A DNA stretch of 64,000 bases, from NCBI RefSeq assembly GCF_024223415.1, contig NZ_CP100502.1; one strand, 5' to 3'. Positions 1-19,562 of the stretch are shown here, in pieces. The notes beneath the pieces were generated by a model. That model was given only the letters and a program-made list of their open reading frames with translations, searched no databases and had not been told where the DNA came from. Made by a program: the position numbers and the translations under genes. How positions within the stretch are numbered: the stretch's first letter is position 1; every line of letters begins with the position of its first letter. This DNA is from Escherichia coli (GTDB taxonomy: Bacteria; Pseudomonadota; Gammaproteobacteria; Enterobacterales; Enterobacteriaceae).

Positions 1-1077
1 GTGTATAAATACACGGCACAATCGCTCCGCCATAAGCGACAGCTTGTGGCAGGTCTGAAGAATACTCCATATAACGCAGTACACTGGAGTCAGTTAGCAC
101 CCGAAGAGCAGATCCGTTTCTGGGAAGACTATGAAGCGGGAAGGGCGACCACTTTCCTGGTTGAACCGGAAAGGAAGCGCACGAAGCGTCGTCGTGGTGA
201 GCACTCCACCAAACCCAAATGCGAAAATCCGTCCTGGTATCGTCCTGAGCGCTATAAGGCGCTGAGCGGGCAGCTCGGGCACGCCTACAACCGTCTGGTG
301 AAAAAGGACCCGGTGACCGGCGAGCAGAGCCTGCGCATGCACATGTCTCTGCATCCTTTTTACGTGCAGAAACGAACGTATGCCGGTCGCAAATATGCTT
401 TCCGTCCGGAAAAACAACGCCTCCTCGATGCCGTCTGGCCGGTTCTGGTCAGCTTCAGTGATGCGGGCACACATACCGTAGGCATGAGTGTTTCCCGTCT
501 GGCCAGAGAAATCAGCCCGAAAGACAGCAAGGGGAAGGTTATTCCGGAACTGGAAGTGACGGTCTCCCGCCTTTCCCGTTTGCTGGCCGAACAGGTACGT
601 TTTGGTGTGCTGGGTGTTTCAGATGAAACCCTGTGGGACCGTGAAACCCGCCAGCGTCTGCCACGCTACGTCTGGATAACACCGGCAGGCTGGCAGATGC
701 TGGGCGTCGACATGGTAAAACTTCACGAACAGCAGCAGAAACGACTGCGTGAAAGTGAAATCCGCCAGCAGCTCATTCGGGAAGGTGTTCTGCGTGAGGA
801 TGAAGATATCTCCGTACATGCGGCCAGAAAACGCTGGTATCTGCAGCGCAGTCAGGATGCGCTGAAACACCGTCGTGCGAAAGCAGCAGCCAGTAAGCGC
901 GCCAGACGCCTGAAGAAACTGCCTGCCGACCAGCAGATTCATGAGATGGCAGAGTATCTCAGGAAGCGTCTGCCTCCGGATGAAGCCTATTTTTGTTCCG
1001 ATGACCATCTGAAGCGAATGGCCATCAGGGAGTTGCGTCAGCTTGAACTGACGCTGGCTGCCCCGCCACCGCACTAA
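1..1077 (+). CDS. Replication initiation protein, RepA/RepZ family (I-complex/IncFII-like replicon); ORF runs from the window edge so the true 5' end is probably upstream
   Basis: 358-aa ORF opening at position 1 with GTG; Arg/Lys-rich C-terminal half typical of RepA1/RepZ initiators; followed by hairpin-rich non-coding DNA; neighbouring backbone (cib, nikAB, trbABC, pnd) is IncI1-like. Confidence 0.55.
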   Translation: MYKYTAQSLRHKRQLVAGLKNTPYNAVHWSQLAPEEQIRFWEDYEAGRATTFLVEPERKRTKRRRGEHSTKPKCENPSWYRPERYKALSGQLGHAYNRLVKKDPVTGEQSLRMHMSLHPFYVQKRTYAGRKYAFRPEKQRLLDAVWPVLVSFSDAGTHTVGMSVSRLAREISPKDSKGKVIPELEVTVSRLSRLLAEQVRFGVLGVSDETLWDRETRQRLPRYVWITPAGWQMLGVDMVKLHEQQQKRLRESEIRQQLIREGVLREDEDISVHAARKRWYLQRSQDALKHRRAKAAASKRARRLKKLPADQQIHEMAEYLRKRLPPDEAYFCSDDHLKRMAIRELRQLELTLAAPPPH

Positions 1078-1650
1078 ACAGCACCATTCCCTCAGCACTG
1101 AATCATCACCAGCCCCTCCGGGGCTTTCGGCGCTGGTTCCGCTCAGCCCAAAATCCGCAGTAATCACCTTAAATCCCCTCAGAGGGGCATATCTGCCCAT
1201 AAAACCACGCATCAGTCATCAGAACATGGCCACGTTGTTTCAGTTATCCACATAAATCCGCAAACAAAGAACTTTAAGAAGCTGCAAACCTGAAACAGCA
1301 AACCTGCAATATAGTCTTAACCCCATTATTTAATCCCCTGCGTTGCTTCGCCGCAGGGAAAATCTTTATCTCTGAGACCACTGTGAACAAATACAAAGAG
1401 GCCTTCGCTTGCAGCGGCCAAGGCCGCGCCGCTCAGAATCTAAAAGCACCTCCCACGCTGACGCGCGGGCCCCGAACCTCACCGTTCTGAAACCACAACA
1501 AAAAAACATCAGGAATAAAAACACCACACAAACGCAGCACCGTGCCCACCCCTCATAACTGAAAAGCGAGGCCGCCCCCGCCCAAAGGGCGGGAACAACA
1601 TCGCTTTTAATTATGAATGTTGTAACTACATTTTCATCGCTGTCAGTCTT
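1078..1650. other. Non-coding hairpin-rich region downstream of rep gene (candidate CIS/origin region)
   Basis: No convincing ORF; GC-rich stem-loops at about 1336-1358 (ccctgcg...cgcaggg) and 1577-1593 (cccgccc aaa gggcggg); position matches where I-complex replicons carry CIS/ori. Confidence 0.3.
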
Positions 1651-2099
1651 CTGGCTGGATGTTCTCAGTACACGCTCGTAAGCGGCCCTGACGGCCCGCT
1701 AACGCGGAGATACGCCCCGACTTCGGGTAAACCCTCGTCGGGACCACTCCGACCGCGCACAGAAACTGTCTCATGGCTGAAAGCGGGTATGGCTTAGCAG
1801 GGCTGGGGATGGGTAAGGTGAAATCTATCAATCAGTACCGGCTGACGCCGGGCTTCGGCGGTTTTACTCCGGTATCACATGTAACCACAGCGTGCCGCCT
1901 TCCATGCCGCTGGCGCGGCATATCCTGGACGTATAGGAAATTGAAAAACCAGACGATACCGCTGTCCACGCCTTATGCCACGTGAGCCTTTCTGCTTTTC
2001 CCTCCACTCCGGTGGTTTCTCTCTCTGCATGGTCGATTTTTATACCGTAACAGGCTGTTTTTTATACCTGCACCGATTCCCGGGCACACTTAGCCTGTG

Positions 2100-2900
2100 T
2101 CAGGCCGGCATATACCTCAGCAGACTGATATCCCGCGCGTTTTTCTTCAGCCCTGATACATTCAGCCCCGCAATGGCCCGGCGGTATACCATCCGGCCGC
2201 CACACAGCACGCATTCGAACGGGTCACGACTCAGGAACTGTTTCACCATTTGTGCATAGCACACTTTCGCCACTGGTTCCGGCTTATCCATCCCCAGAGC
2301 ACGGTACACCTGCGGCAGCTTCTCTCCACACACCCGGTTGGCAAGGAACCCGAAGTATCTCACCATCTTAAAAAACTTCTCCGGGATGTGCTGTTTCAGC
2401 CTCGCGACCAGCTCCCGCTGTGTCAGCGTTTCCGTCGCCGTTTCTCCCGTTTTGTGGTCCAGGTAACGGAAGCTCAGACTCGCTCCTCCGTTGTAATGCG
2501 CCAGCCGGGAAGCCGCTATTGGTGGCTTCTTCAGATAACGACCCAGGTAGCGTGCCGTATTCCGCCCTCCGGCTGTCTTCTTCGACATGTACACATGCCA
2601 GTATTTTCCGCCGGCTTTCAGCACCAGGCTTCTCCACTGTGATTCCGTCGTGATATGTGACAACGATTCCGGCATCGCCAGACCTTCTGACCACGCTTTC
2701 AGAAGCAGCTGCCGCATATTCCACATCCACCGCGAACGCATCGCGTCTTTCAGGAAGCTCAGCTTTTTCCAGTGTCCGTGTTTATTCAGACCTCCGCAGG
2801 TCACTGACACATGCACATGCGGATGCCAGTTGAGACGACGGCCATACGTATGGATGGCGCAGAAGATACCGGGTTCCAGACCCCGTTTCCGGGCTGCATA
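2100..2900 (-). pseudogene. tnpA: IS91-family (rolling-circle, ISCR-like) transposase, C-terminal segment of a gene split by the Tn2-bounded insertion
   Basis: Reading frame continues upstream of the listed ORF to the insertion point; contains HTYGRRLNWHPHVH (HUH) and ARYLGRY (tyrosine) motifs; joins in frame with the 14248-14660 segment across the target duplication. Confidence 0.8.
2896..2900. repeat. 5-bp target site duplication GCATA (left copy)
   Basis: Identical pentamer directly flanks the outer ends of the two Tn2-type terminal inverted repeats (2896-2900 and 14248-14252). Confidence 0.8.
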
Positions 2901-2965
2901 GGGGTCTGACGCTCAGTGGAACGAAAACTCACGTTAAGGGATTTTGGTCATGAGATTATCAAAAA
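2901..2965. mobile_element. Tn2/Tn3 IRR-end fragment (38-bp inverted repeat at 2901-2938 plus 27 bp of adjacent Tn2 sequence)
   Basis: GGGGTCTGACGCTCAGTGGAACGAAAACTCACGTTAAG followed by GGATTTTGGTCATGAGATTATCAAAAAGG, identical to the bla-proximal end at 9298-9362. Confidence 0.85.
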
Positions 2966-3003
2966 GGGGAGCCCGCAGAATTCGGAAAAAATCGTACGCT
3001 AAG
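2966..3003. repeat. 38-bp terminal inverted repeat of a Tn21-subgroup transposon (Tn1721/Tn501-like, contains GAATTC)
   Basis: GGGGAGCCCGCAGAATTCGGAAAAAATCGTACGCTAAG overlapping the tnpA stop codon, as in Tn21-family elements. Confidence 0.7.
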
Positions 3004-5965
3004 GTTTTCCGGGCATCCGTAAGGGCCGAAACTTCCCGTCTTCCAGTCTGCGGCTCTGCCGCCAGACGTAATCGCCGGTTAGGTTGATGTGCTCCCAGCC
3101 CAGCGGCGACAGGAATTGCAGCAGCTCGCCGTCCACCGGCTTGCCGGCCTCGACCAACCCCTGGGTGGCGCGTTCCAGGTACACCGTGTTCCACAGCACG
3201 ATAGCCGCCGTCACCAGGTTGAGGCCGCTGGCCCGGTAGCGCTGCTGCTCGAAGCTCCGATCCCTGATTTCCCCAAGGCGGTTGAAGAACACCGCCCTGG
3301 CCAGCGAGTTGCGCGCCTCACCTTTGTTCAGGCCGGCATGCACGCGGCGGCGCAGTTCAACACTTTGCAGCCAGTCCAGGATGAACAGCGTGCGCTCGAT
3401 CCGGCCCAGCTCGCGCAGGGCCACGGCCAGTCCGTTCTGGCGCGGGTAGCTGCCGAGCTTGCGCAGCATCAGCGAGGCGGTGACGGTGCCCTGCTTGATC
3501 GAGCTGGCCAGGCGCAGGATGTCGTCCCAGTGGGCACGCACGTGCTTGATGTTCAGGGTGCCGCCGATCAGCGGGCGCAACGTCGGGTAGGCTTGCACGC
3601 CCTGCGGCACGTACAGCTTGGTTTCGCCGAGGTCGCGGATGCGCGGCGCGAAGCGGAAGCCTAGCAGGTGCATCAGGGCAAAGACGTGATCGGTGAAGCC
3701 GGCCGTGTCGGTGTAGTGCTCCTCGATCCGCAGGTCGGACTCGTGGTACAGCAGGCCGTCGAGCACATAGGTGGAATCGCGGACGCCGACATTCACCACG
3801 CGGGTGCTGAACGGCGCGTACTGGTCGGAGATATGGGTATAGAACAGCCGTCCCGGCTCGCTACCGTACTTCGGGTTGACGTGCCCGGTGCTCTCGCCCC
3901 GGCCACCCGCGCGGAAGCGCTGGCCATCGGAGGATGAGGTCGTGCCGTCGCCCCAGTGGGCGGCAAAGGCGTGGCGATACTGGTGGTTGACCAGCTCGGC
4001 CAAGGCCGCCGAATAGGTTTCGTCGCGGATGTGCCAGGCTTGCAGCCAGGACAGCTTGGCGTAGGTCAGGCCGGGGCTCGACTCGGCCATCTTGGTCAGC
4101 CCGAGGTTGATCGCATCACCGAGGATTGCGGACAGCAGCAACGTCCTGTCTTTGGCCTCGGCCCCGTCCTTCAAGTGGGTGAAGTGGCGGCTGAAGCCCG
4201 TCCAGTCGTCCACGTCCATCAGCAGTTCGGTGATCTTGATGCGCGGCAGTAACTGGCTGGTTTGGTCGATCAGCGCCTGCGCCCGATCCGGCACCGCCGC
4301 ATCCAGCGGGGTGATTTTCAGCCCTGACTCGGTGAGGATGGCATCGGGCAGCTCGTTGTCCTTGGCCAGGCGGGTGACGGTGGCCAACTGCTCGTCCAGC
4401 AGCTGCAAACGCTCTTCCAGGTACTGGTCGCTGTTCGGGTTGATCGCCAGGGGCAGGGCCTGCTCGCGCTTGAGTGCGGCGAACTTCTCGGCCGGCAGCA
4501 GGTAGTCGTCGAAGTCGCGGAACTGCCGCGAGCCCTTGACCCAGATGTCGCCGGAGCGCAGGGCGTTCTTCAGCTCGGACAGGGCGCAGATTTCGTAGAA
4601 TTTCCGGTCGAGGCCTTCCGGGGTGATCACCAGCGGCTTCCAGCGCGGCTTGATGAAGGCCGTGGGTGCATCGGCCGGCACCTTGCGCAGGTTGTCGGCG
4701 TTCATCTCACGCAGGGTCTGCACGGCTGCCAGCACGCCTTGCGCGGCCGGCGCGGCGCGCAGTTCCAGCACCTCCAGCAAGGCCGGCGTGTAACGGCGCA
4801 GGGTGGCGAAGTTCTCGCCGACCAGGTGCAGGTGGTCGAAGCCTTCCGGCCGGGCCAGCAGCTCGGCCTCGCTGACGCTCTCGGTGAACTCGTCCCAGGG
4901 AATCACCGCCTCGATGGCGGCATAGGGGTCGCTGCCGCTTTCCTTCGCTTCCAGCAGCGCCTGGCCGATCCTGGAGTACAGGCGCACCTTGTCGTTGATC
5001 GCCTTGCCCTGCTTCTGGAACTGCTGCTGATGCTTGTGCTTCGCGCCGCTGAACAGCTTGACCAGGATGCGGTCATGCAGATCGACCAGCTCATCGATCA
5101 CGGTCGCGGTGCTCTCCAGCACCACGGCGGCCAGGGTCGCGTAGCGGCGCTGCGGCTCGAACTTACCGAGGTCTTTGGGCGTCATCTGCCCACCCTCGCG
5201 GGCCAGCTTGAGCAGGCGGTTCTGGTGGATGTGCCGGCCCAGGCCTTCGGGCAAGTCCACCAACTGAAATGTCTTCAGCCGCTCGATGTGTTCCAGCATG
5301 TGCCGAGAGTTGGGTTTCAGCGGTGCCTGGCGCAGCCAGGTCAACCAGGTGATGCTGCTGCCGGCCTTGAGCTTCAACAGCTCGTCCAGCTTGGCCCGAT
5401 GCGAGTCCGTGAGTGGTTCGACCAGGGCGCGGTAGACCCGCCGATTGGCTCGCGCAATGGCTTCCGAGCAGGCCCGGTCAATCACGCTCAGCGCCGGCAG
5501 GATGCGTCGTTTCTGCCGTAGGCTCTCCAGGGCCTGACCGGCCAGCAGCAAGCCTTTGTCGGTCTGCTGGGCCAGCTCGGTTAGCTCGCGCACCAGGGCG
5601 CGGAAGTCGGACAGGCCGAACGGGGCCAGTTGCAGGTAGGTGCGCAGTTCCTGGGCATGCTCGCGACGGGTCACGTCGCGCTCGCCGTACTTTGCCCAGC
5701 TCGCCGGCTCGGCCTGGACTTGCTTCGCCACCCACAGGATGACCGGCTCGGGCAGCTCGCTGTCGGTTCCCAGCGCGTAACCGGGGTAGCGCAGCAGGCA
5801 GAGCTGCACGGCGAAGCCGAGGCGGTTGGCGTCGCCGCGTCGCTGGCGGATCAGCGACAGGTCGGAGTCGTTGAAGGTGTAGTAGCGGATCAGGTCATCC
5901 TGGCTTTCCGGCAGCGCAAGCAGGGTGTCCCGCTCCGTGGCCGAGAGGATCAAGCGACGCGGCAT
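2999..5965 (-). CDS. tnpA: Tn3-family transposase, Tn21 subgroup
   Basis: 988-aa ORF, recognised as Tn21/Tn1721-type TnpA by recall; immediately upstream of tnpR and res. Confidence 0.9.
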
Positions 5966-5968
5966 GTG

Positions 5969-6529
5969 TCAGTCGTCCGTGCGGAGGTACTGGTAGAGGG
6001 TTTCCCGGCTGATGTTGAACTCGCGGGCAAGCTGCGCCTTGGGCTCGCCGGCCGTCGCTCGCTGCCGCAGGGTAGCAGCCTGCTCATCGGACAGGGCTTT
6101 CTTGCGGCCCCGGTACGCGCCACGCTGCTTGGCCAAGGCGATGCCCTCACGCTGCCGCTCGCGGATCAGGGCGCGCTCGAACTCAGCGAAGGCCCCCATC
6201 ACCGACAGCATCAGGTTGGCCATCGGCGAGTCCTCGCCAGTGAACACCAGGCCCTCCTTCAGGAACTCGATGCGCACGCCGCGCTGAGTCAGCTTCTGTA
6301 CCAAGCGACGCAGGTCATCGAGGTTGCGGGCCAGCCGATCCATGCTGTGCACCACCACTGTATCGCCTTCGCGGACGAAGCTCAGCAGCGCTTCGAGCTG
6401 GGGGCGCTGGGTGTCCTTGCCCGATGCCTTGTCGGTGAACACCTTGCTCACCTGGGTTTGTTCCAGCTGGCGTTCCGGGTTCTGGTCAAAGCTGCTGACC
6501 CGGACGTAGCCGATGCGGTGCCCCTGCAC
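5969..6529 (-). CDS. tnpR: Serine resolvase of Tn21-subgroup transposon
   Basis: 186-aa ORF beginning MQGHRIGYVRVSS with catalytic serine motif and C-terminal HTH. Confidence 0.9.
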   Translation of the reverse strand: MQGHRIGYVRVSSFDQNPERQLEQTQVSKVFTDKASGKDTQRPQLEALLSFVREGDTVVVHSMDRLARNLDDLRRLVQKLTQRGVRIEFLKEGLVFTGEDSPMANLMLSVMGAFAEFERALIRERQREGIALAKQRGAYRGRKKALSDEQAATLRQRATAGEPKAQLAREFNISRETLYQYLRTDD

Positions 6530-6704
6530 GATGTCTCCTTGGTTGAAGGCGGCTTAAGTGCACTTTCTGTTCCGTTGTGCCTCAAAGCCCATTTCTGTCA
6601 GGCTGAAATCTATAACCTTCGCGGGCATGTGTCAAAAAATGGGAAAGCAGACTCTATTCTGACGAAGCGGCGCGGCCCTGCCTGACATCAAGTTAGGGTA
6701 TGCC
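6530..6704. promoter_or_regulatory. res (resolution) site region of the Tn21-like transposon
   Basis: Position between tnpR start and tnpM, as in Tn21; subsites not mapped. Confidence 0.5.
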
Positions 6705-7055
6705 TCAACCTGACGGCGGCGAATCACAAGCGTCCGGTTTGACGCTGGTTTCGGTCGCAGTGCTGGCCCGCGCCTGGAAGCGCTGATAGCACTCCAGCCC
6801 GCAGAAATGCTCCACGTACTCGGCCCCTTCCGGCGTGAAGGCGGCATCGAGCGGGATTTCCTTGCAGCACACGCAGCAACTGGTGCTCGGTTCATTGGCG
6901 TTCATGGTGGTGTTCCTCCATTGGTTGACGAAGCCGACGAAGGCCGCCGCCGGCATCGGCCTGGCGAACAGGAAACCCTGCACCGTGTCGCAACCCGCCT
7001 GCCGCAACCACGCAAGGCAGTCGGGTGTTTCCACACCCTCGGCTACCACCTCCAT
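6705..7055 (-). CDS. tnpM: TnpM (urf2M) of Tn21, start codon abutting integron IRi
   Basis: 116-aa C-terminal part of listed ORF beginning [21 protein letters not shown]; start lies directly against IRi at 7056. Confidence 0.6.
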
Positions 7056-7080
7056 TGTCGTTTTCAGAAGACGGCTGCAC
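7056..7080. repeat. IRi, 25-bp inverted repeat marking the intI1 end of a class 1 integron
   Basis: TGTCGTTTTCAGAAGACGGCTGCAC. Confidence 0.8.
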
Positions 7081-7257
7081 TGAACGTCAGAAGCCGACTG
7101 CACTATAGCAGCGGAGGGGTTGGATCCATCAGGCAACGACGGGCTGCTGCCGGCCATCAGCGGACGCAGGGAGGACTTTCCGCAACCGGCCGTTCGATGC
7201 GGCACCGATGGCCTTCGCGCAGGGGTAGTGAATCCGCCAGGATTGACTTGCGCTGCC

Positions 7258-8271
7258 CTACCTCTCACTAGTGAGGGGCGGCAGCGCATCAAGCGGTGAG
7301 CGCACTCCGGCACCGCCAACTTTCAGCACATGCGTGTAAATCATCGTCGTAGAGACGTCGGAATGGCCGAGCAGATCCTGCACGGTTCGAATGTCGTAAC
7401 CGCTGCGGAGCAAGGCCGTCGCGAACGAGTGGCGGAGGGTGTGCGGTGTGGCGGGCTTCGTGATGCCTGCTTGTTCTACGGCACGTTTGAAGGCGCGCTG
7501 AAAGGTCTGGTCATACATGTGATGGCGACGCACGACACCGCTCCGTGGATCGGTCGAATGCGTGTGCTGCGCAAAAACCCAGAACCACGGCCAGGAATGC
7601 CCGGCGCGCGGATACTTCCGCTCAAGGGCGTCGGGAAGCGCAACGCCGCTGCGGCCCTCGGCCTGGTCCTTCAGCCACCATGCCCGTGCACGCGACAGCT
7701 GCTCGCGCAGGCTGGGTGCCAAGCTCTCGGGTAACATCAAGGCCCGATCCTTGGAGCCCTTGCCCTCCCGCACGATGATCGTGCCGTGATCGAAATCCAG
7801 ATCCTTGACCCGCAGTTGCAAACCCTCACTGATCCGCATGCCCGTTCCATACAGAAGCTGGGCGAACAAACGATGCTCGCCTTCCAGAAAACCGAGGATG
7901 CGAACCACTTCATCCGGGGTCAGCACCACCGGCAAGCGCCGCGACGGCCGAGGTCTTCCGATCTCCTGAAGCCAGGGCAGATCCGTGCACAGCACCTTGC
8001 CGTAGAAGAACAGCAAGGCCGCCAATGCCTGACGATGCGTGGAGACCGAAACCTTGCGCTCGTTCGCCAGCCAGGACAGAAATGCCTCGACTTCGCTGCT
8101 GCCCAAGGTTGCCGGGTGACGCACACCGTGGAAACGGATGAAGGCACGAACCCAGTGGACATAAGCCTGTTCGGTTCGTAAGCTGTAATGCAAGTAGCGT
8201 ATGCGCTCACGCAACTGGTCCAGAACCTTGACCGAACGCAGCGGTGGTAACGGCGCAGTGGCGGTTTTCAT
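7258..8271 (-). CDS. intI1: Class 1 integron integrase
   Basis: 337-aa ORF beginning [49 protein letters not shown]. Confidence 0.95.
8156..8184 (+). promoter_or_regulatory. Integron cassette promoter Pc, weak variant (-35 TGGACA, 17-bp spacer, -10 TAAGCT); P2 inactive (14-bp spacer between TTGTTA and TACAGT)
   Basis: Hexamers read directly inside the intI1 coding region; no GGG insertion between TTGTTA and TACAGT near 8290. Confidence 0.7.
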
Positions 8272-8289
8272 GGCTTGTTATGACTGTTT

Positions 8290-8410
8290 TTTTGTACAGT
8301 CTATGCCTCGGGCATCCAAGCAGCAAGCGCGTTACGCCGTGGGTCGATGTTTGATGTTATGGAGCAGCAACGATGTTACGCAGCAGGGCAGTCGCCCTAA
8401 AACAAAGTTA
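8290..8410. other. attI1 recombination site region
   Basis: Sequence ending CCCTAAAACAAAGTTA at the cassette boundary upstream of dfrA1. Confidence 0.6.
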
Positions 8411-8427
8411 ACCTCTGAGGAAGAATT

Positions 8428-8901
8428 GTGAAACTATCACTAATGGTAGCTATATCGAAGAATGGAGTTATCGGGAATGGCCCTGATATTCCATGGAGTG
8501 CCAAAGGTGAACAGCTCCTGTTTAAAGCTATTACCTATAACCAATGGCTGTTGGTTGGACGCAAGACTTTTGAATCAATGGGAGCATTACCCAACCGAAA
8601 GTATGCGGTCGTAACACGTTCAAGTTTTACATCTGACAATGAGAACGTAGTGATCTTTCCATCAATTAAAGATGCTTTAACCAACCTAAAGAAAATAACG
8701 GATCATGTCATTGTTTCAGGTGGTGGGGAGATATACAAAAGCCTGATCGATCAAGTAGATACACTACATATATCTACAATAGACATCGAGCCGGAAGGTG
8801 ATGTTTACTTTCCTGAAATCCCCAGCAATTTTAGGCCAGTTTTTACCCAAGACTTCGCCTCTAACATAAATTATAGTTACCAAATCTGGCAAAAGGGTTA
8901 A
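8428..8901 (+). CDS. dfrA1: Trimethoprim-resistant dihydrofolate reductase DfrA1 (gene cassette)
   Basis: 157-aa ORF with GTG start, [52 protein letters not shown]. Confidence 0.9.
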
Positions 8902-8993
8902 CAAGTGGCAGCAACGGATTCGCAAACCTGTCACGCCTTTTGTACCAAAAGCCGCGCCAGGTTTGCGATCCGCTGTGCCAGGCGTTAAACATC
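8902..8993. other. attC (59-be) of the dfrA1 cassette
   Basis: Between dfrA1 stop and aadA1 start, ending GTTAAAC core. Confidence 0.5.
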
Positions 8994-9297
8994 ATGAGGG
9001 AAGCGGTGATCGCCGAAGTATCGACTCAACTATCAGAGGTAGTTGGCGTCATCGAGCGCCATCTCGAACCGACGTTGCTGGCCGTACATTTGTACGGCTC
9101 CGCAGTGGATGGCGGCCTGAAGCCACACAGTGATATTGATTTGCTGGTTACGGTGACCGTAAGGCTTGATGAAACAACGCGGCGAGCTTTGATCAACGAC
9201 CTTTTGGAAACTTCGGCTTCCCCTGGAGAGAGCGAGATTCTCCGCGCTGTAGAAGTCACCATTGTTGTGCACGACGACATCATTCCGTGGCGTTATC
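8994..9297 (+). pseudogene. aadA1: aadA1 streptomycin/spectinomycin adenylyltransferase, 3'-truncated (about 101 of 263 codons) by Tn2 IRR
   Basis: Begins MREAVIAEVSTQLSEVVGVIERHLEPTLLAVHLYGSAVDGGLKPHSDIDLL; reading frame runs straight into the Tn2 inverted repeat at 9298. Confidence 0.85.
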
Positions 9298-9335
9298 GGG
9301 GTCTGACGCTCAGTGGAACGAAAACTCACGTTAAG
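9298..9335. repeat. Tn2/Tn3 38-bp terminal inverted repeat (IRR, bla end)
   Basis: GGGGTCTGACGCTCAGTGGAACGAAAACTCACGTTAAG. Confidence 0.9.
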
Positions 9336-9444
9336 GGATTTTGGTCATGAGATTATCAAAAAGGATCTTCACCTAGATCCTTTTAAATTAAAAATGAAGT
9401 TTTAAATCAATCTAAAGTATATATGAGTAAACTTGGTCTGACAG

Positions 9445-10317
<873 letters not shown>

Positions 10318-10487
10318 TCAATATTATTGAAGCATTTACCAGGGTTATTGTCTCATGAGCGGATACATATTTGAATGTATTTAGAAAAATAAACAAATAG
10401 GGGTTCCGCGCACATTTCCCCGAAAAGTGCCACCTGACGTCTAAGAAACCATTATTATCATGACATTAACCTATAAAAATAGGCGTA

Positions 10488-11208
<721 letters not shown>

Positions 11209-14200
11209 ATGCCCGTTGACTTTCTGACCACTGAGCAGACTGAAAGCTATGGCAGATTCACCGGTGAACCGGATGAGCTTCAGCTGGCACGATATTTTCA
11301 CCTTGATGAAGCAGACAAGGAATTTATCGGAAAAAGCAGAGGTGATCACAACCGTCTGGGCATTGCCCTGCAAATTGGATGTGTCCGTTTTCTGGGCACC
11401 TTCCTCACCGATATGAATCATATTCCTTCCGGCGTCCGGCATTTTACCGCCAGACAGCTCGGGATTCGTGATATCACCGTTCTTGCAGAATACGGTCAGA
11501 GGGAAAATACCCGCCGTGAGCATGCAGCGCTGATACGTCAGCACTATCAGTATCGTGAATTTGCCTGGCCCTGGACATTTCGCCTTACCCGTCTTTTATA
11601 TACCCGGAGCTGGATAAGCAACGAACGTCCTGGCCTGCTTTTCGATCTGGCGACAGGGTGGCTTATGCAACATCGTATTATTCTCCCCGGAGCCACTACG
11701 CTGACCCGGTTGATTTCAGAGGTAAGGGAAAAGGCGACGTTGCGCCTGTGGAACAAACTGGCACTGATACCGTCAGCCGAACAGCGTTCACAGCTGGAGA
11801 TGCTGCTGGGGCCAACTGATTGCAGCCGCCTGTCTTTACTGGAATCACTGAAAAAGGGCCCTGTGACCATCAGTGGTCCGGCGTTTAATGAAGCAATTGA
11901 ACGCTGGAAAACTCTGAACGATTTTGGCCTGCATGCTGAAAACCTGAGTACACTCCCGGCTGTGCGCCTGAAAAATCTCGCACGTTATGCTGGTATGACT
12001 TCGGTGTTCAATATTGCCAGGATGTCACCGCAGAAAAGGATGGCGGTTCTGGTTGCCTTTGTCCTTGCATGGGAAACGCTGGCGCTGGATGATGCATTGG
12101 ACGTTCTGGACGCCATGCTGGCCGTTATCATCCGTGACGCCAGAAAGATTGGGCAGAAAAAACGGCTCCGCTCGCTGAAGGATCTGGATAAATCTGCATT
12201 GGCGCTCGCCAGCGCATGTTCGTACCTGCTGAAAGAAGAAACACCGGACGAATCGATTCGTGCTGAGGTGTTCAGCTACATCCCAAGGCAAAAGCTGGCT
12301 GAAATCATCACGCTTGTCCGTGAAATTGCCCGGCCCTCAGACGATAATTTTCATGAAGAAATGGTGGAGCAGTACGGGCGCGTTCGTCGTTTCCTGCCCC
12401 ATCTGCTGAATACCGTTAAATTTTCATCCGCACCTGCCGGGGTTACCACTCTGAATGCCTGTGACTACCTCAGCCGGGAGTTCAGCTCACGGCGGCAGTT
12501 TTTTGACGACGCACCAACGGAAATTATCAGTCGGTCATGGAAACGGCTGGTGATTAACAAGGAAAAACATATCACCCGCAGGGGATACACGCTCTGCTTT
12601 CTCAGTAAACTGCAGGATAGTCTGAGGCGGAGGGATGTCTACGTTACCGGCAGTAACCGGTGGGGAGATCCTCGTGCAAGATTACTACAGGGTGCTGACT
12701 GGCAGGCAAACCGGATTAAGGTTTATCGTTCTTTGGGGCACCCGACAGACCCGCAGGAAGCAATAAAATCTCTGGGTCATCAGCTTGATAGTCGTTACAG
12801 ACAGGTTGCTGCACGTCTTTGCGAAAATGAGGCTGTCGAACTCGATGTTTCTGGCCCGAAGCCCCGGTTGACAATTTCTCCCCTCGCCAGTCTTGATGAG
12901 CCGGACAGTCTGAAACGACTGAGCAAAATGATCAGTGATCTACTCCCTCCGGTGGATTTAACGGAGTTGCTGCTCGAAATTAACGCCCATACCGGATTTG
13001 CTGATGAGTTTTTCCATGCTAGTGAAGCCAGTGCCAGAGTTGATGATCTGCCCGTCAGCATCAGCGCCGTGCTGATGGCTGAAGCCTGCAATATCGGTCT
13101 GGAACCACTGATCAGATCAAATGTTCCTGCACTGACCCGACACCGGCTGAACTGGACAAAAGCGAACTATCTGCGGGCTGAAACTATCACCAGCGCTAAT
13201 GCCAGACTGGTTGATTTTCAGGCAACGCTGCCACTGGCACAGATATGGGGTGGAGGAGAAGTGGCATCTGCAGATGGAATGCGCTTTGTTACGCCAGTCA
13301 GAACAATCAATGCCGGACCGAACCGCAAATACTTTGGTAATAACAGAGGGATCACCTGGTACAACTTTGTGTCCGATCAGTATTCCGGCTTTCATGGCAT
13401 CGTTATACCGGGGACGCTGAGGGACTCTATCTTTGTGCTGGAAGGTCTTCTGGAACAGGAGACCGGGCTGAATCCAACCGAAATTATGACCGATACAGCA
13501 GGTGCCAGCGAACTTGTCTTTGGCCTTTTCTGGCTGCTGGGATACCAGTTTTCTCCACGCCTGGCTGATGCCGGTGCTTCGGTTTTCTGGCGAATGGACC
13601 ATGATGCCGACTATGGCGTGCTGAATGATATTGCCAGAGGGCAATCAGATCCCCGAAAAATAGTCCTTCAGTGGGACGAAATGATCCGGACCGCTGGCTC
13701 CCTGAAGCTGGGCAAAGTACAGGTTTCAGTGCTGGTCCGTTCATTGCTGAAAAGTGAACGTCCTTCCGGACTGACTCAGGCAATCATTGAAGTGGGGCGC
13801 ATCAACAAAACGCTGTATCTGCTTAATTATATTGATGATGAAGATTACCGCCGGCGCATTCTGACCCAGCTTAATCGGGGAGAAAGTCGCCATGCCGTTG
13901 CCAGAGCCATCTGTCACGGTCAAAAAGGTGAGATAAGAAAACGATATACCGACGGTCAGGAAGATCAACTGGGCACACTGGGGCTGGTCACTAACGCCGT
14001 CGTGTTATGGAACACTATTTATATGCAGGCAGCCCTGGATCATCTCCGGGCGCAGGGTGAAACACTGAATGATGAAGATATCGCACGCCTCTCCCCGCTT
14101 TGCCACGGACATATCAATATGCTCGGCCATTATTCCTTCACGCTGGCAGAACTGGTGACCAAAGGACATCTGAGACCATTAAAAGAGGCGTCAGAGGCAG

Positions 14201-14214
14201 AAAACGTTGCTTAA
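11209..14214 (+). CDS. tnpA: Tn2/Tn3 transposase
   Basis: About 1001 aa from MPVDFLTTEQTESYGRFTGEPDEL; stop codon lies inside the terminal repeat. Confidence 0.95.
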   Translation: MPVDFLTTEQTESYGRFTGEPDELQLARYFHLDEADKEFIGKSRGDHNRLGIALQIGCVRFLGTFLTDMNHIPSGVRHFTARQLGIRDITVLAEYGQRENTRREHAALIRQHYQYREFAWPWTFRLTRLLYTRSWISNERPGLLFDLATGWLMQHRIILPGATTLTRLISEVREKATLRLWNKLALIPSAEQRSQLEMLLGPTDCSRLSLLESLKKGPVTISGPAFNEAIERWKTLNDFGLHAENLSTLPAVRLKNLARYAGMTSVFNIARMSPQKRMAVLVAFVLAWETLALDDALDVLDAMLAVIIRDARKIGQKKRLRSLKDLDKSALALASACSYLLKEETPDESIRAEVFSYIPRQKLAEIITLVREIARPSDDNFHEEMVEQYGRVRRFLPHLLNTVKFSSAPAGVTTLNACDYLSREFSSRRQFFDDAPTEIISRSWKRLVINKEKHITRRGYTLCFLSKLQDSLRRRDVYVTGSNRWGDPRARLLQGADWQANRIKVYRSLGHPTDPQEAIKSLGHQLDSRYRQVAARLCENEAVELDVSGPKPRLTISPLASLDEPDSLKRLSKMISDLLPPVDLTELLLEINAHTGFADEFFHASEASARVDDLPVSISAVLMAEACNIGLEPLIRSNVPALTRHRLNWTKANYLRAETITSANARLVDFQATLPLAQIWGGGEVASADGMRFVTPVRTINAGPNRKYFGNNRGITWYNFVSDQYSGFHGIVIPGTLRDSIFVLEGLLEQETGLNPTEIMTDTAGASELVFGLFWLLGYQFSPRLADAGASVFWRMDHDADYGVLNDIARGQSDPRKIVLQWDEMIRTAGSLKLGKVQVSVLVRSLLKSERPSGLTQAIIEVGRINKTLYLLNYIDDEDYRRRILTQLNRGESRHAVARAICHGQKGEIRKRYTDGQEDQLGTLGLVTNAVVLWNTIYMQAALDHLRAQGETLNDEDIARLSPLCHGHINMLGHYSFTLAELVTKGHLRPLKEASEAENVA

Positions 14215-14247
14215 CGTGAGTTTTCGTTCCACTGAGCGTCAGACCCC
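14210..14247. repeat. Tn2/Tn3 38-bp terminal inverted repeat (IRL, tnpA end)
   Basis: CTTAACGTGAGTTTTCGTTCCACTGAGCGTCAGACCCC. Confidence 0.9.
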
Positions 14248-14252
14248 GCATA
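14248..14252. repeat. 5-bp target site duplication GCATA (right copy)
   Basis: Matches 2896-2900. Confidence 0.8.
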
Positions 14253-14660
14253 CAGCAGATTCTCCACCGCCAGACGGCACACGTCATTCAGCAGCCAGCG
14301 GTTGCTTTCGAACACCGGCCACAGCGTGTCCGGCAGGGTGAAGACCAGGTGCACCCAGTCGCAGTCAGGAAGACGATTCAGCTGTGTCGCTATCCACAGG
14401 TCTGTGGCCTTTTTTCCGCAGGACGGGCAGGCACGGCTGCCACATGAGTTAGTGACGTATCTGACGTGGGGGCACTCAGGTTTATCGCAGTTGTATTCCT
14501 TCACACCCAGTATCCGCGTGCCGCAGGCCAGCATTTTTGTGACAGCCTCAACCTCGATATCGCGCAGGCCGCCCGCATCCAGGAAGGATGTCCAGCACTG
14601 GTTGGCTGTGAACAGGCGTTTCAGCGGTCGGGGCTGAAAATCACCACCACTTCGGGTCAT
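14248..14660 (-). pseudogene. tnpA: IS91-family transposase, N-terminal zinc-binding segment of the gene split by the Tn2-bounded insertion
   Basis: CPHVRYVTNSCGSRACPSCGKK zinc-ribbon-like motif; frame joins 2100-2900 across the target duplication. Confidence 0.75.
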
Positions 14661-14913
14661 CCGCCTTCATCTCCGCTTCAGTTTCGTATAAATCAAAACG
14701 ACGGCAGGTATGGCAGAACGTGACGTATTCGTACGGTGAATCCGGGTACATTTTGTGGAAGGTTTCCCAGAAACAGACCGTACAGGAGGGATGACCGGCG
14801 ATAAAGTCTGTAAATACAGACTGATAAGGGTGATTATTGGCCCTGGCGACGGCTTTCAGAACCTCTTTCACCATTCTGGTGTGGACTTTCTGGTGCTCCA
14901 GGTTGTGTGACAT
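14641..14913 (-). CDS. Cys/His-rich ORF upstream of and overlapping the IS91-family tnpA start in another frame (upstream accessory ORF or frameshifted N-terminus)
   Basis: 90-aa ORF with HPSCTVCFWETFHKMY...CHTCRRF; overlaps tnpA by 20 nt in a different frame. Confidence 0.35.
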   Translation of the reverse strand: MSHNLEHQKVHTRMVKEVLKAVARANNHPYQSVFTDFIAGHPSCTVCFWETFHKMYPDSPYEYVTFCHTCRRFDLYETEAEMKADDPKWW

Positions 14914-15127
14914 GGGAACTCATTCTGGATGGTTACTCTGAAAGCTCATATTCTGCCACACCACGATTTGCAGCCGCCAGGCTGCCGTGGTTCATGGTTA
15001 GGTTTTGCGATAGTATATTTACGAGCTGATTAAGGTTTGGCATAGTGTGGTTCGTAAGAAAAATTACTATTATGCCTTGTCCTTAGTCAGCTTTTTTGTT
15101 TTTTGTCGTGTACAGAGAGAAGCCCCC

Positions 15128-15943
15128 ATGAATAAATCGCTCATCATTTTCGGCATCGTCAACATAACCTCGGACAGTTTCTCCGATGGAGGCCGGTATC
15201 TGGCGCCAGACGCAGCCATTGCGCAGGCGCGTAAGCTGATGGCCGAGGGGGCAGATGTGATCGACCTCGGTCCGGCATCCAGCAATCCCGACGCCGCGCC
15301 TGTTTCGTCCGACACAGAAATCGCGCGTATCGCGCCGGTGCTGGACGCGCTCAAGGCAGATGGCATTCCCGTCTCGCTCGACAGTTATCAACCCGCGACG
15401 CAAGCCTATGCCTTGTCGCGTGGTGTGGCCTATCTCAATGATATTCGCGGTTTTCCAGACGCTGCGTTCTATCCGCAATTGGCGAAATCATCTGCCAAAC
15501 TCGTCGTTATGCATTCGGTGCAAGACGGGCAGGCAGATCGGCGCGAGGCACCCGCTGGCGACATCATGGATCACATTGCGGCGTTCTTTGACGCGCGCAT
15601 CGCGGCGCTGACGGGTGCCGGTATCAAACGCAACCGCCTTGTCCTTGATCCCGGCATGGGGTTTTTTCTGGGGGCTGCTCCCGAAACCTCGCTCTCGGTG
15701 CTGGCGCGGTTCGATGAATTGCGGCTGCGCTTCGATTTGCCGGTGCTTCTGTCTGTTTCGCGCAAATCCTTTCTGCGCGCGCTCACAGGCCGTGGTCCGG
15801 GGGATGTCGGGGCCGCGACACTCGCTGCAGAGCTTGCCGCCGCCGCAGGTGGAGCTGACTTCATCCGCACACACGAGCCGCGCCCCTTGCGCGACGGGCT
15901 GGCGGTATTGGCGGCGCTGAAAGAAACCGCAAGAATTCGTTAA
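15128..15943 (+). CDS. sul2: Sulfonamide-resistant dihydropteroate synthase Sul2
   Basis: 271 aa from MNKSLIIFGIVNITSDSFSDGGRYLAPDAAIAQARKLMAEGADVIDLG. Confidence 0.95.
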   Translation: MNKSLIIFGIVNITSDSFSDGGRYLAPDAAIAQARKLMAEGADVIDLGPASSNPDAAPVSSDTEIARIAPVLDALKADGIPVSLDSYQPATQAYALSRGVAYLNDIRGFPDAAFYPQLAKSSAKLVVMHSVQDGQADRREAPAGDIMDHIAAFFDARIAALTGAGIKRNRLVLDPGMGFFLGAAPETSLSVLARFDELRLRFDLPVLLSVSRKSFLRALTGRGPGDVGAATLAAELAAAAGGADFIRTHEPRPLRDGLAVLAALKETARIR

Positions 15944-16029
15944 CTGCACATTCGGGATATTTCTCTATATTCGCGGTTCAGCAGGCATGTCCCCTTTGAG
16001 GGCGACCCGACGACAGGATAATCGACCTT

Positions 16030-16275
16030 ATGGTGCGCAAATATTTCGGCACAGACGGTATTCGTGGCAAAGCCAACGAAGGCGCGATGACGGCGGAAAC
16101 CGCCTTGCGCGTCGGCATGGCGGCTGGCCGTGTCTTTCGTCGCGGTGACCACCGCCATCGTGTCGTGATCGGCAAGGATACGCGCCTGTCGGGCTATATG
16201 CTTGAACCCGCGCTCACAGCCGGTTTCACCTCGATGGGCATGGACGTATTCCTTTTTGGCCCGCTGCCGACAACG
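16030..16275 (+). pseudogene. glmM: Truncated phosphoglucosamine mutase fragment, the usual sul2-associated relic
   Basis: [36 protein letters not shown]... then loss of similarity. Confidence 0.8.
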
Positions 16276-16507
16276 TATAGGAAGAATAAACGCCCTTTTC
16301 ACCCAAGTCCAACAGCTTTGGACCGCAGTTGACTCTTTCGACACCCCTGCGATGCAACCCAATCCGGCTGACGGGGAGCCAGCAACGCTGAAAATTTACC
16401 CTCCTCTTTCCCACTAGCGGCTCCTTTTCCGACAACCAGCACGGCGGATCCCTGCCGCGGCGCTGTGAACGCAGCATTTTGATTGGTATCGTTGGCCTTC
16501 AGGCTCG

Positions 16508-17644: not shown

Positions 17645-17971
17645 GGGTTGTTCGTCCTGGACGGCGAACCCGGCAAAGCTCCTGTAACATTGCTTCTTCC
17701 TGTTTTGTTAGCGTGACTGTCACGCTAGCGCCTTCCTCTTTGAGTCGCGCGCGGCGCCGGGCCTGGCGAATACGGGCTTGTTCACGCTGTCGGTCATTCA
17801 TATTTTTCCTCCACGTGACTGTCACGTTGAATTAAACTGGGCATTACCCCTGCGGGGCCGTTCTGCCGTGCTGCGCATCGAGCCGCTACGCGTCTCGCCC
17901 CTTCGGGCGGCGGCCACTAATGCCTCCGGCCTGCGGCCTCCGCGCTTCGCTTGTGACGATATCTGAATCGT

Positions 17972-17988
17972 TATATACTGTGTATATA
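17972..17988. promoter_or_regulatory. Palindromic operator-like site TATATAC-N3-GTATATA upstream of the toxin-antitoxin operon
   Basis: Perfect 7-bp inverted arms about 25 bp upstream of the antitoxin start. Confidence 0.4.
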
Positions 17989-18010
17989 CGTAGTAATGAC
18001 GAGGTGATAA

Positions 18011-18280
18011 ATGGCACAGGTTAATATGAGTTTAAGAATCGACGCTGAACTGAAGGATGCTTTTATGGCCGCTGCAAAAAGCATGGACCGTAATGGCTCT
18101 CAGTTAATTCGGGATTTTATGCGCCAGACCGTTGAACGGCAGCATAATACCTGGTTCCGTGACCAGGTTGAGGCAGGACGTCAGCAACTCGAGCGCGGCG
18201 ATGTGCTTCCCCATGACATGGTCGAATCTTCCGCTGCTGCATGGCGGGATGAAATGAGCAGGAAGGTTGCCGGTAAATGA
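18011..18280 (+). CDS. Antitoxin, ParD/RelB-like (YacA-like of IncI plasmids)
   Basis: 89-aa ORF with ribbon-helix-helix-like N-terminus; 4-nt overlap with downstream toxin gene. Confidence 0.7.
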   Translation: MAQVNMSLRIDAELKDAFMAAAKSMDRNGSQLIRDFMRQTVERQHNTWFRDQVEAGRQQLERGDVLPHDMVESSAAAWRDEMSRKVAGK

Positions 18281-18558: not shown

Positions 18559-18597
18559 AGGGGCTGTCCGGATATAAGGAAAGGAGATGCAATAACC

Positions 18598-19446: not shown

Positions 19447-19517
19447 CCGCCTGGCCTGTATACCGCAATCATTTACGTTATCCAGACGTAAATCCGCCGC
19501 TTGTTGCTGTCAGCATG

Positions 19518-19549: not shown

Positions 19550-19562
19550 TGAGGGATGATAT

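Follow-up and report, generated by a model that had tools for sequence, protein, structure and literature searches.

The window considered here is the whole 64-kb stretch of DNA that was analysed, and it derives from an IncI-gamma/K1 (B/O/K/Z-type) conjugative plasmid. Its positions 2901-14247 (11,347 bp) consist of well-known transposons stacked one inside another, which occupy one Tn2 insertion site in IS1294. The features of the stack and of the interrupted insertion sequence are collected in Table 1.

Table 1. Features of the nested transposons and their IS1294 target (window positions).
Feature	Position	Strand	Basis
IS1294 (IS91 family), left part, interrupted by Tn2 insertion; left end approximate	1929-2900	-	continuity with pESBL-305
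GCATA, left copy of the 5-bp target-site duplication of the Tn2-ended element	2896-2900		adjoins 2901
Tn2 bp 1-65 (IRR 2901-2938 plus 27 bp), outer end of composite	2901-2965	+	identical to 9298-9362
Tn1721/Tn1722 38-bp terminal inverted repeat (IRR)	2966-3003	+	direct reading; identical to IRR of complete Tn1722 in pFORC_081_3
tnpA of Tn1721/Tn1722 (NCBI label: TnAs1 family)	2999-5965	-	annotation of pF1005-1, identical here
tnpR (resolvase) of Tn1721/Tn1722	5969-6529	-	annotation; only 77% identity to R1 Tn21-type tnpR
Hybrid res region; Tn1721-to-Tn21 crossover within GTTAGGGTAT at 6692-6701	6530-6704		three-way alignment
tnpM of Tn21, 116-codon remnant of EAL-domain gene, ends at integron boundary	6705-7055	-	ORF translation
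Class 1 integron 5' conserved segment	7056-8410	-	motif search and annotation
IRi	starts 7056		
intI1	7258-8271	-	
attI1	8356-8410		
dfrA1 cassette gene (trimethoprim resistance), intact	8428-8901	+	AMRFinder, 100% in identical plasmid
aadA1 stub, 101 codons plus 1 nt of 263 codons	8994-9297	+	translation; ATG at 8994
Complete Tn2, 4,950 bp; truncates aadA1 after codon 101	9298-14247	+	repeats, annotation
Tn2 IRR	9298-9335		
blaTEM-1b	9445-10305	-	
Tn2 tnpR	10488-11045	-	
Tn2 res	~11046-11208		
Tn2 tnpA	11209-14214	+	
Tn2 IRL	14210-14247		
IS1294, right part; starts with right GCATA copy (14248-14252)	14248-14998	-	pESBL-305, L005 3305-4055

The outer boundaries are set by the target. Positions 1-2900 are continuous with an intact IS91-family element of pESBL-305, homology to which stops at 14998 on the right; for the same IS sequence, the depositor of pUR5159 gives the label 'tnpA of IS1294'. 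The left end of the insertion sequence was inferred from the breakpoints in pEC345 (1922/1929) and pUR5159 (1925). The pentanucleotide GCATA immediately precedes 2901 and immediately follows 14247; where IS1294 is uninterrupted, in pESBL-305, it is present as a single copy, and 1-2900 and 14248-14998 overlap there by 5 bp (L005 3305-3309). Because it marks both outer ends within one IS1294, all 11,347 bp lie inside a single original Tn2 insertion, and both the 65 bp on the left and the right-hand end of the complete Tn2 stem from that one event.

In a preliminary description of the locus, two identical, directly oriented 65-bp segments of a Tn2 end were reported, and alignment shows no difference between them: in the self-comparison of the window, 2901-2965 and 9298-9362 agree at 65 of 65 bases. 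The first 38 bp of both copies are the terminal repeat of Tn2 on its bla side (IRR). The identity extends to 67 bases in total (2901-2967 and 9298-9364), only because the Tn1721 repeat (GGGGAGCCC...) opens with GG and in Tn2 a GG likewise comes after AAAAA (...AAAAAGGATC); leftward of the copies, no identity was found between the two flanks in the same comparison. An exact repeat of 65 bases within 64 kb cannot be of chance origin. Over the whole window, the 38-bp repeat of Tn2 is present twice in the same orientation (2901, 9298) and once inverted (14210-14247), and the Tn1721-type repeat once (2966-3003).

The left copy adjoins, without a gap, the complete 38-bp repeat GGGGAGCCCGCAGAATTCGGAAAAAATCGTACGCTAAG at 2966-3003, as expected from the earlier statement that it is fused to the terminal repeat of a Tn21-subgroup transposon. 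The 3' end of a Tn1721-type tnpA falls within this repeat, and tnpR and res follow. A Tn21-type origin of tnpR was rejected; identity of the gene to its counterpart in the Tn21-type transposon of R1 is just 77%, and it is therefore Tn1721-type. In comparison with pFORC_081_3, which carries a complete Tn1722, one mismatch and one gap were found over 1-6705. The second end (IRL), mcp/orfI and the tet(A) module of Tn1721 are missing. With a single Tn1721-type repeat and with Tn1722 homology ending at about 6701-6705, the element is therefore partial and not a complete member of its group.

In the three-way alignment, the window equals Tn1722 through 6701 and Tn21 (R1) from 6692 on, with BLAST breakpoints at 6705 against Tn1722 and at 6682 against Tn21. 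The crossover thus falls at the centre of res site I, the signature of resolvase-mediated exchange. Over 6682-8423, identity to R1 in its Tn21-type region is 99.5%, unbroken across tnpM and the IRi boundary. From the class 1 integron (In2 type), IRi abutting tnpM, intI1, attI1 and cassettes are retained, including dfrA1, which is annotated as a 474-nt CDS in pGF31-B; the 3' conserved segment (qacEdelta1-sul1) and IRt are lacking. As read from the sequence, the element that inserted into Tn2 was Tn1721/Tn1722, and the integron arm joined it later via a res site I crossover with a Tn21-type transposon.

Positions 8984-9297 are 100% identical to aadA1 of plasmid R1. Past codon 101 the sequence is that of Tn2, and the reading frame runs for 17 unrelated codons into the Tn2 repeat, in place of the 263 residues of full-length AadA1 (ANT(3'')-Ia); RGI calls 'aadA15' over 9006-9350. 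The 3' part of aadA1, qacEdelta1 and sul1 were not found in a motif search of the whole window, which agrees with the previously noted loss of the 3' conserved segment and survival of a 101-codon stub. Downstream of sul2, the ORFs encode nothing beyond fragments of glmM and of an ISCR2 (ISVsa3)-type transposase, and no streptomycin/spectinomycin resistance gene is called in the near-identical pF1005-1, which covers the window except for about 160 bp. For this window, absence of streptomycin/spectinomycin resistance is a sound prediction from the genotype. The ampicillin, trimethoprim and sulfonamide resistance genes are kept and most of aadA1 is removed; blaTEM-1b, dfrA1 and the adjoining sul2 are intact genes in the product, and aadA1 is dead.

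The repeat arms of the element at 9298-14247 are 100% complementary and enclose, within about 4.95 kb, tnpA, res, tnpR and bla, all annotated as intact; the bla product is TEM-1. The framework is that of blaTEM-1b (175G, 226T, 436T and 604T versus A, C, C and G in Tn3 of R1), in a position numbering that is said to originate from Goussard and Courvalin in 1999. Overall identity to Tn3 of R1 is 97.3%, with most differences clustered at Tn coordinates 1377-2115, around res, the 5' portion of tnpR and the beginning of tnpA. Tn2 has been defined by its divergence from Tn3 in short regions flanking res, and the blaTEM-1b framework goes with Tn2, 1a with Tn3, and blaTEM-2 with Tn1 (PMC4611040). Based on its repeats, its framework and its divergence from Tn3 beside res, the element can be assigned to Tn2. 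It shows no differences from Tn2 of pFORC_081_3 (bp 66-4950) or of pEC345. A 5-bp duplication does not surround it; TTATC precedes it and GCATA follows it, and the GCATA duplication fits the outer pair of ends alone (2901 and 14247). This mismatch is evidence for recombination. Derivation of the uninterrupted Tn2 at 9298 from the interrupted copy was rejected, since the latter cannot give an intact sequence; a second, intact Tn2 sequence is therefore required. To this extent the second Tn2 postulated in aadA1 stands, while its arrival by simple insertion is an inference, the reciprocal junction not having been found in the records named below. That recombination or deletion joined the Tn2 copies, as had also been proposed, is upheld, there being no other way to join them.

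Several intermediates are represented among relatives. In pFORC_081_3 and 14 other plasmids, Tn2 bp 65 and 66 are separated by a Tn1722 or Tn1721 that has both its ends and an AAAAA duplication, confirming the earlier view that a Tn21-subgroup transposon had entered Tn2 65 bp from its end. Tn2 bp 65 adjoins the Tn1721 IRR in about 116 plasmids, and IRL-AAAAA adjoins Tn2 bp 66 in 15. The layout of pFORC_081_3 is IS1294L-GCATA-Tn2(1-65)-Tn1722 (5,640 bp, with mcp and IRL)-AAAAA-Tn2(66-4950). A 10.6-kb Tn2::Tn1722 composite flanked by AACAA is found in the chromosome of E. coli FCI56; the composite keeps both Tn2 ends and moves as a unit. Flank exchange is frequent, the flank pairs being GCATA/GATAA in pFORC_081_3, GATAA/GTCAA in pWP5-W18-ESBL-11_1 and TTTTA/GCATA in pEC345. 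The junction of the aadA1 stub with Tn2 occurs in ten PLSDB records, four of which also have the IS1294L-Tn2(65)-Tn1721 junction.

In the most probable course of events, Tn2::Tn1722 in IS1294 became a hybrid at res site I and would then have recombined with an intact Tn2 beside aadA1. Initially, Tn1722 or Tn1721 transposed between Tn2 bp 65 and 66 with duplication of AAAAA, as seen in the relatives, and a Tn2-ended element is seated in IS1294, where GCATA is duplicated. The mcp side of Tn1722 was swapped, as the sequence shows, for the tnpM-integron side of a Tn21-type transposon, centred on res site I, by which intI1-dfrA1-aadA1 was gained. Subsequently, an intact Tn2 in the same orientation would have placed its IRR against aadA1 at TTATC and recombined with the resident interrupted Tn2, most plausibly at the res sites via the Tn2 resolvase, otherwise via RecA, on one molecule or during cointegrate resolution. 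This would remove aadA1 codons 102-263, the 3' conserved segment, the remaining Tn21-type arm and the DNA from Tn2 bp 66 to the crossover, leaving one scar-free Tn2 and, in all, two IRR and one IRL. As the two Tn2 parents have no sequence differences, the crossover point cannot be located. The reciprocal junction, Tn2 IRL-TTATC-aadA1 3' part, is absent from PLSDB and 5,426 complete E. coli genomes as well as from 100,044 species-representative genomes and JGI metagenome contigs; no record has the pre-deletion form with two Tn2 copies, and none has Tn2 bp 66 next to a Tn21 mer-end repeat. Transposition immunity in the Tn3 family also counts against this course, since a plasmid with Tn2 repeats should largely resist a second Tn2.

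A rather unlikely alternative would dispense with simple insertion of a second Tn2 into aadA1 and start from an adjacent deletion in a sister lineage, with homologous exchange as the second stage. In that lineage, a Tn2 lying intact in IS1294 would have undergone intramolecular replicative transposition into aadA1 on its left with a deletion outcome, giving aadA1(101 codons)-TTATC-Tn2-GCATA-IS1294R at the cost of IS1294L, the 3' conserved segment and the aadA1 3' part. Such an arrangement is seen in pGF31-B and six Danish IncK2/Z plasmids, which carry aadA1stub-Tn2-GCATA-IS1294R-sul2 as in the window, lack the left 65-bp copy and the left part of IS1294, and have their Tn1721 IRR in an IS21-family istA. 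A homologous double crossover with a pFORC-like plasmid (IS1294L-Tn2(65)-Tn1722-Tn2), with one exchange in the Tn1721 tnpA/tnpR common to both and the other in Tn2 or in backbone sequence right of it, would then bring together 65-bp copies from two different parent plasmids. A recombinant would be expected to show the pattern observed, with only two differences from pGF31-B over 2966-20964 and only 98.2% identity over 1-1922, set against the near-identity of 1-6705 to pFORC_081_3. The absence of the reciprocal junction is predicted as well, and pEC345 offers another example in which this right flank is paired with a different left one. However, PLSDB contains no example of the ancestor needed, in which the IS1294 left flank would adjoin an uninterrupted Tn2, and all records there with IS1294L-GCATA-IRR have Tn1721 at bp 65; the pre-deletion sister-lineage plasmid was likewise not found, and the reverse order is equally possible, with the pGF31-B type derived from the window type by exchange within Tn1721.

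That repeated Tn2 sequence was collapsed or mis-joined in assembly is exceedingly improbable. Tn2 is multicopy and often breaks short-read assemblies, and nothing in the data suggests such an artefact here. The first 16 kb of the window recur at 100% in independently sequenced complete plasmids from hen E. coli (France), pig-faeces E. fergusonii and chicken E. coli, the last with an additional ISKpn19 insertion, and a plasmid from a human isolate (Ecuador) matches over 1-10,140 and diverges beyond. At both junctions, moreover, the boundaries are exact in biological terms: the 38-bp repeat is complete and the 5-bp duplications match.

Summarizing, the 65-bp duplication is a residue of ordinary shuffling among well-known resistance transposons on an E. 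coli plasmid; all parts and processes are already well known, and the first 16 kb are identical to a deposited plasmid. With Tn2, the commonest blaTEM-1 transposon of the Tn3 family, the window has in common the 38-bp repeats, the length of 4,950 bp, tnpA, res, tnpR and the blaTEM-1b framework; it differs in having an additional 65-bp IRR end beside one complete copy, and in that this copy is without a target duplication of its own, the 5-bp duplication being carried by the outer ends. The Tn2::Tn1722 and Tn2::Tn1721 composites (10.6 kb or ~16 kb), widespread in plasmids of E. coli, Salmonella and Klebsiella, have the same Tn2 bp 65/Tn1721 IRR junction and identical Tn1721-type tnpA and tnpR, and that of pFORC_081_3 also the IS1294 left flank. 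In contrast, the window lacks mcp, the Tn1722 IRL and the AAAAA-Tn2 bp 66 junction, and instead has tnpM-intI1-dfrA1-aadA1 stub and a fresh Tn2 end. Mobile Tn21/Tn1721 hybrids are documented, an example being Tn7714 (PMC11332342). Hybrids of this type likewise combine Tn1721 tnpA/tnpR with Tn21 tnpM and a class 1 integron, joined in res, whereas only the left arm is present in the window, without 3' conserved segment, tni genes, mer operon, Tn21 mer-end repeat and tet(A) module. Tn1331, a Tn3 derivative with integron cassettes, is likewise a mosaic of bla transposon and integron (PMC4611040). The classical nesting of a bla transposon and Tn21-type integron DNA is that of Tn4 of R1, a Tn21-type transposon with Tn3; there, Tn3 is a simple insertion in mer, whereas in the window Tn2 is the host of the Tn21-subgroup element, and a cassette is cut short by a second Tn2 end.

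Homology to an uninterrupted IS1294 is found on both sides of the 11,347-bp composite. In pESBL-305, window positions 1-2900 align to 410-3309 of the stretch fetched for comparison and positions 14248-14998 to 3305-4055, so that the five bases GCATA, and no others, are common to both alignments. The Tn2 repeats that start at 2901 and end at 14247 are thus the two termini of one Tn2-type insertion, with its 5-bp target duplication, and all DNA between 2901 and 14247 lies within that Tn2-ended element. The complete inner Tn2 is without a duplication of its own (flanks TTATC and GCATA), which shows that its left end reached aadA1 in some way other than by a simple insertion that has survived.

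Features of the composite and its surroundings (window coordinates)
Feature	Position	Strand	Remark
repA	46-1077		
IS1294, left part	~1929-2900		
GCATA, left duplication copy	2896-2900		
Tn2 bp 1-65	2901-2965		
Tn1721/Tn1722 IRR	2966-3003		
tnpA, Tn1721-type	2999-5965	-	
tnpR	5969-6529	-	
res region	6530-6704		
tnpM	6705-7055	-	
IRi (integron repeat)	starts 7056		
intI1	7258-8271	-	
attI1	8356-8410		
dfrA1	8428-8901		
aadA1 stub	8994-9297		
complete Tn2	9298-14247		
blaTEM-1 of complete Tn2	9445-10305		
tnpR of complete Tn2	10488-11045		
tnpA of complete Tn2	11209-14214		
GCATA, right duplication copy	14248-14252		
IS1294, right part	14248-14998		
sul2	15128-15940		followed by the next two features
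glmM fragment	~16030-16270		3' of sul2
ISCR2 (ISVsa3)-type IS91-family transposase gene	16508-17644	-	truncated

The two 65-bp segments, which the preliminary description had given as identical, agree at 65 of 65 positions in direct orientation (2901-2965 and 9298-9362), and the alignment shows no difference. The identity extends by two further bases (2901-2967 and 9298-9364), solely because the Tn1721 repeat begins GGGG and Tn2 goes on ...AAAAAGGATC; leftward of either copy there is zero identity. An exact 65-base match within 64 kb cannot be due to chance. Both copies open with the 38-bp terminal repeat of the bla end of Tn2 (IRR), which occurs in the window exactly twice in this orientation and once inverted, at 14210-14247. 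The complete 4,950-bp element is 97.3% identical to Tn3 of R1, the differences being grouped on either side of res, and its bla gene carries 175G/226T/436T/604T versus A/C/C/G in R1. These positions assign it to the blaTEM-1b framework (R1 has 1a), with the predicted TEM-1 protein unchanged. Divergence flanking res and the blaTEM-1b framework are criteria for Tn2, which is often mislabelled Tn3 (Partridge, PMC4611040); as judged from its sequence, the element is to be classed as Tn2 and not as Tn3. It shows no differences from the Tn2 copies of pFORC_081_3 and pEC345.

The proposed entry of a Tn21-subgroup element 65 bp inside a Tn2 is preserved in relatives. In pFORC_081_3, which shares with the window the replicon type and the IS1294 left flank with GCATA, Tn2 bp 1-65 are followed by a complete 5,640-bp Tn1722 (IRR, tnpA, tnpR, mcp, IRL), AAAAA, and Tn2 bp 66-4950. 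A 5-bp duplication, here AAAAA, is expected of the insertion of a Tn21-subgroup transposon. The junction of bp 65 with the Tn1721/Tn1722 IRR is present in approximately 116 PLSDB plasmids (coverage of at least 80%; a few split matches may be included), and the IRL-AAAAA-bp 66 junction in 15, with a spacing compatible with either Tn1722 or Tn1721. The resulting 10.6-kb Tn2::Tn1722 composite is common among complete E. coli genomes. On the chromosome of FCI56 (NZ_CM172715.1; 302-10895 of the stretch fetched) it disrupts a flavin reductase gene, with the 5-bp duplication AACAA on either side, which indicates that the composite transposes as a unit, using the same 65-bp end as the left copy of the window. 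The same composite also occupies one conserved site in many plasmids of approximately 158-162 kb from pigs, dogs, chickens, water, and humans. Two further plasmids considered as carriers of it at a new site, pPK8568-156kb (H21) and p24A16CRGN010_D (H186), turned out to be different mosaics, with IS26 and dfrA14 and with a Tn2 inside Tn1721 tnpA.

The arm between the two Tn2-derived sequences is a Tn1721/Tn21 hybrid. Homology to Tn1722 stops at approximately 6701-6705, while 6682-8423, which spans tnpM, IRi, intI1, and attI1, matches the Tn21-type transposon of R1 at 99.5% identity; tnpR of this arm, by contrast, has only 77% identity with its Tn21 counterpart. By three-way alignment, the switch falls within GTTAGGGTAT (6692-6701), at the middle of the palindromic res site I, which is where the resolvase of Tn3-family elements cuts. 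The position of the switch at res implies that the integron was not part of the element that first entered Tn2 and was added later at res. Hybrids of this composition are documented and mobile, an example being Tn7714 (PMC11332342).

Exchange of flanks through recombination between Tn2 sequences is common in this plasmid family. The left and right flanks are GCATA and GATAA in pFORC_081_3, GATAA and GTCAA in pWP5-W18-ESBL-11_1, and TTTTA (Tn7 DNA) and GCATA in pEC345. Since GATAA is common to the right flank of pFORC_081_3 (GATAAAGAG..., 16496-16510 of its stretch) and the left flank of the 158-kb family (...GTGGATAA, 287-301 of the stretch from pWP5-W18-ESBL-11_1), the pFORC_081_3 copy is itself a recombinant, derived from two copies of the composite that lay at different sites. 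A 254-kb plasmid of the same strain has both junction types, far apart. GATAA beside the Tn2 IRL of pFORC_081_3 is the reverse complement of TTATC and was considered as the partner of the aadA1 junction; this was ruled out, because its match to the left flank in the 158-kb family denotes flank exchange that has nothing to do with aadA1. In the sister plasmid pEC345 (NZ_CP094198.1; 5331-12378 of the stretch fetched), the right side reads Tn2-GCATA-IS1294-sul2 as in the window, and the Tn2 IRR adjoins Tn7/class 2 integron DNA downstream of dfrA1-sat2-aadA1, with no duplication. This plasmid shows the left flank replaced for a second time, in an independent event.

Because bp 65 and 66 are contiguous in the Tn2 at 9298, this Tn2 is not derivable from the interrupted copy; recombination between the resident Tn2 and an intact Tn2 sequence must have taken place. 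Self-transposition of the composite into its own aadA1 was rejected on similar reasoning, as Tn1721 would then recur after bp 65, yet the copy at 9298 is uninterrupted. Identical Tn2 sequences recombine without a scar. Most likely, two directly oriented Tn2 copies would have recombined at res by the action of the Tn2 resolvase, either after insertion of a Tn2 into aadA1 or directly in the course of resolving a cointegrate with three res sites. The reciprocal junction, Tn2 IRL-TTATC-aadA1 3' part (GAGCGTCAGACCCCTTATCCAGCTAAGCG, a synthetically built query), had no match in PLSDB, complete E. coli genomes, species-representative genomes, or metagenome contigs; the sole PLSDB row with full coverage is a two-piece match approximately 100 bp out of register, that is, a different insertion, in aadA23. 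No PLSDB record has the left flank of IS1294 next to an intact Tn2. The right end predicted for the hybrid inside Tn2, with the mer-end repeat of Tn21 adjoining AAAAA-Tn2 bp 66, gave only split, non-contiguous matches.

The data also permit a route by which an intact Tn2 in a sister lineage would have made a one-step adjacent deletion yielding the aadA1-stub/Tn2 junction, followed by homologous exchange with a pFORC-like plasmid. This junction is rare, being absent from species-representative genomes and present in 10 PLSDB records in two contexts, namely that of the window and that of pGF31-B and six Danish IncK2/Z plasmids. In the latter, the Tn1721 IRR lies within an IS21-family istA, and both the 65-bp copy and the left part of IS1294 are missing; an IS91-family fragment of pGF31-B has no nucleotide homology to that left part and was dismissed as its remnant. 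The identity pattern is recombinant-like: the left 6.7 kb of the window differ from pFORC_081_3 by one mismatch and one gap, and 2966-20964 differ from pGF31-B at only two positions, with 1-1922 only 98.2% identical. However, this pattern carries no information on the direction of events. Resolvase-mediated recombination at res is favoured, and both routes fall within the class envisaged in the preliminary description, which had correctly interpreted the locus in outline: recombination or deletion uniting two sequences derived from Tn2. A simple insertion of the second Tn2 into aadA1 stays putative, its reciprocal junction having been found in none of the collections.

As to resistance, aadA1 is reduced to 101 codons and one base, 100% identical to aadA1 of R1, after which the frame reads 17 unrelated codons of the Tn2 repeat. 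The loss of the 3' conserved segment was likewise recognized at the outset; the aadA1 3' part, qacEdelta1, and sul1 occur nowhere in the 64-kb window. In the near-identical plasmid pF1005-1, which covers all but approximately 160 bp of the window, no other aminoglycoside genes were called, and it has no resistance genes outside the stretch matching the window. The ORFs downstream of sul2 encode only a fragment of glmM and one of an ISCR2 (ISVsa3)-type transposase, and strA-strB is not present in the sul2 region (15047-17644). From the genotype, streptomycin/spectinomycin susceptibility is soundly predicted for this DNA. In an identical public record, RGI labels 9006-9350, comprising the stub and the Tn2 read-through, as "aadA15, 98.97% identity". 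This is likely a false-positive aminoglycoside resistance call, and a genotype-to-phenotype pipeline could wrongly predict streptomycin/spectinomycin resistance from the stub.

Positions 1-16000, which contain the entire structure, are identical to deposited plasmids: pF1005-1, an IncI-gamma/K1 conjugative plasmid from a French hen, and, at 100%, two more from chicken E. coli and pig E. fergusonii. Identity throughout to pF1005-1, the best database match, was ruled out, as the 64-kb window lacks the two IS21 copies of that plasmid (NZ_OY754354.1, 36500-38619 and 55277-57405, inversely oriented; empty window sites 36499 and 53177). At the site of one of these copies, the umuC-type polymerase gene is intact in pGF31-B. 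Compared with pGF31-B, 41285-51024 is approximately 1% diverged between flanks approximately 99.98% identical, which suggests a mosaic backbone. The approximately 120 bp that separate the end of IS1294 from the sul2 segment (14999-15117) are absent from pESBL-305. In the family branch of pESBL-305 (4047-4055 of its stretch) and pEco_M21816_111, the intact IS1294 right end adjoins a truncated Tn1721 tnpA (window-equivalent 3551), after which the same Tn1721/Tn21 hybrid is found with dfrA17-aadA5 and IS26; pESBL-305 would seem to have arisen from the M21816 form through deletion of the tet module. In the blaSHV-12 plasmid pUR5159 (OR790945.1; 3395-4751 of its stretch), the Tn1721 tnpA contains a second IS1294-like copy, which is diverged (91-96% identity) and lies just past the shared junction of the IS1294 left part, Tn2 bp 1-65, and Tn1721.

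It is doubtful, if conceivable, that the 11,347-bp structure (2901-14247) is itself an unnamed transposon derived from Tn2, active and able to use either of two IRR ends: its ends are intact, and transposition is evident for the sister 10.6-kb composite, but a second location of the 11.3-kb form was not found. If so, the Tn2 transposase could mobilize the 4.95-kb Tn2 by itself or the entire structure with dfrA1, the integron integrase and attI1, and a second, Tn1721-type transposase/resolvase set, thus providing a bla-linked vehicle for a cassette-capturing integron platform.

Summarizing, the value of the locus is practical rather than conceptual. Its signature junctions, IS1294-GCATA-Tn2(65)-Tn1721, aadA1(TTATC)-Tn2, and Tn2-GCATA-IS1294, can trace an IncB/O/K/Z-type plasmid family in poultry, pigs, meat, and humans in several countries. 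Literature searches found no description of the exact mosaic arrangement. Its parts (Tn2, Tn1721/Tn1722, a Tn21-type class 1 integron, and IS1294) are all known, as are the processes, and it is neither a new kind of element nor new biology; as a textbook case, it shows resistance regions being reshuffled, without scars, by the res sites of the Tn3 family and by repeated copies of transposons.
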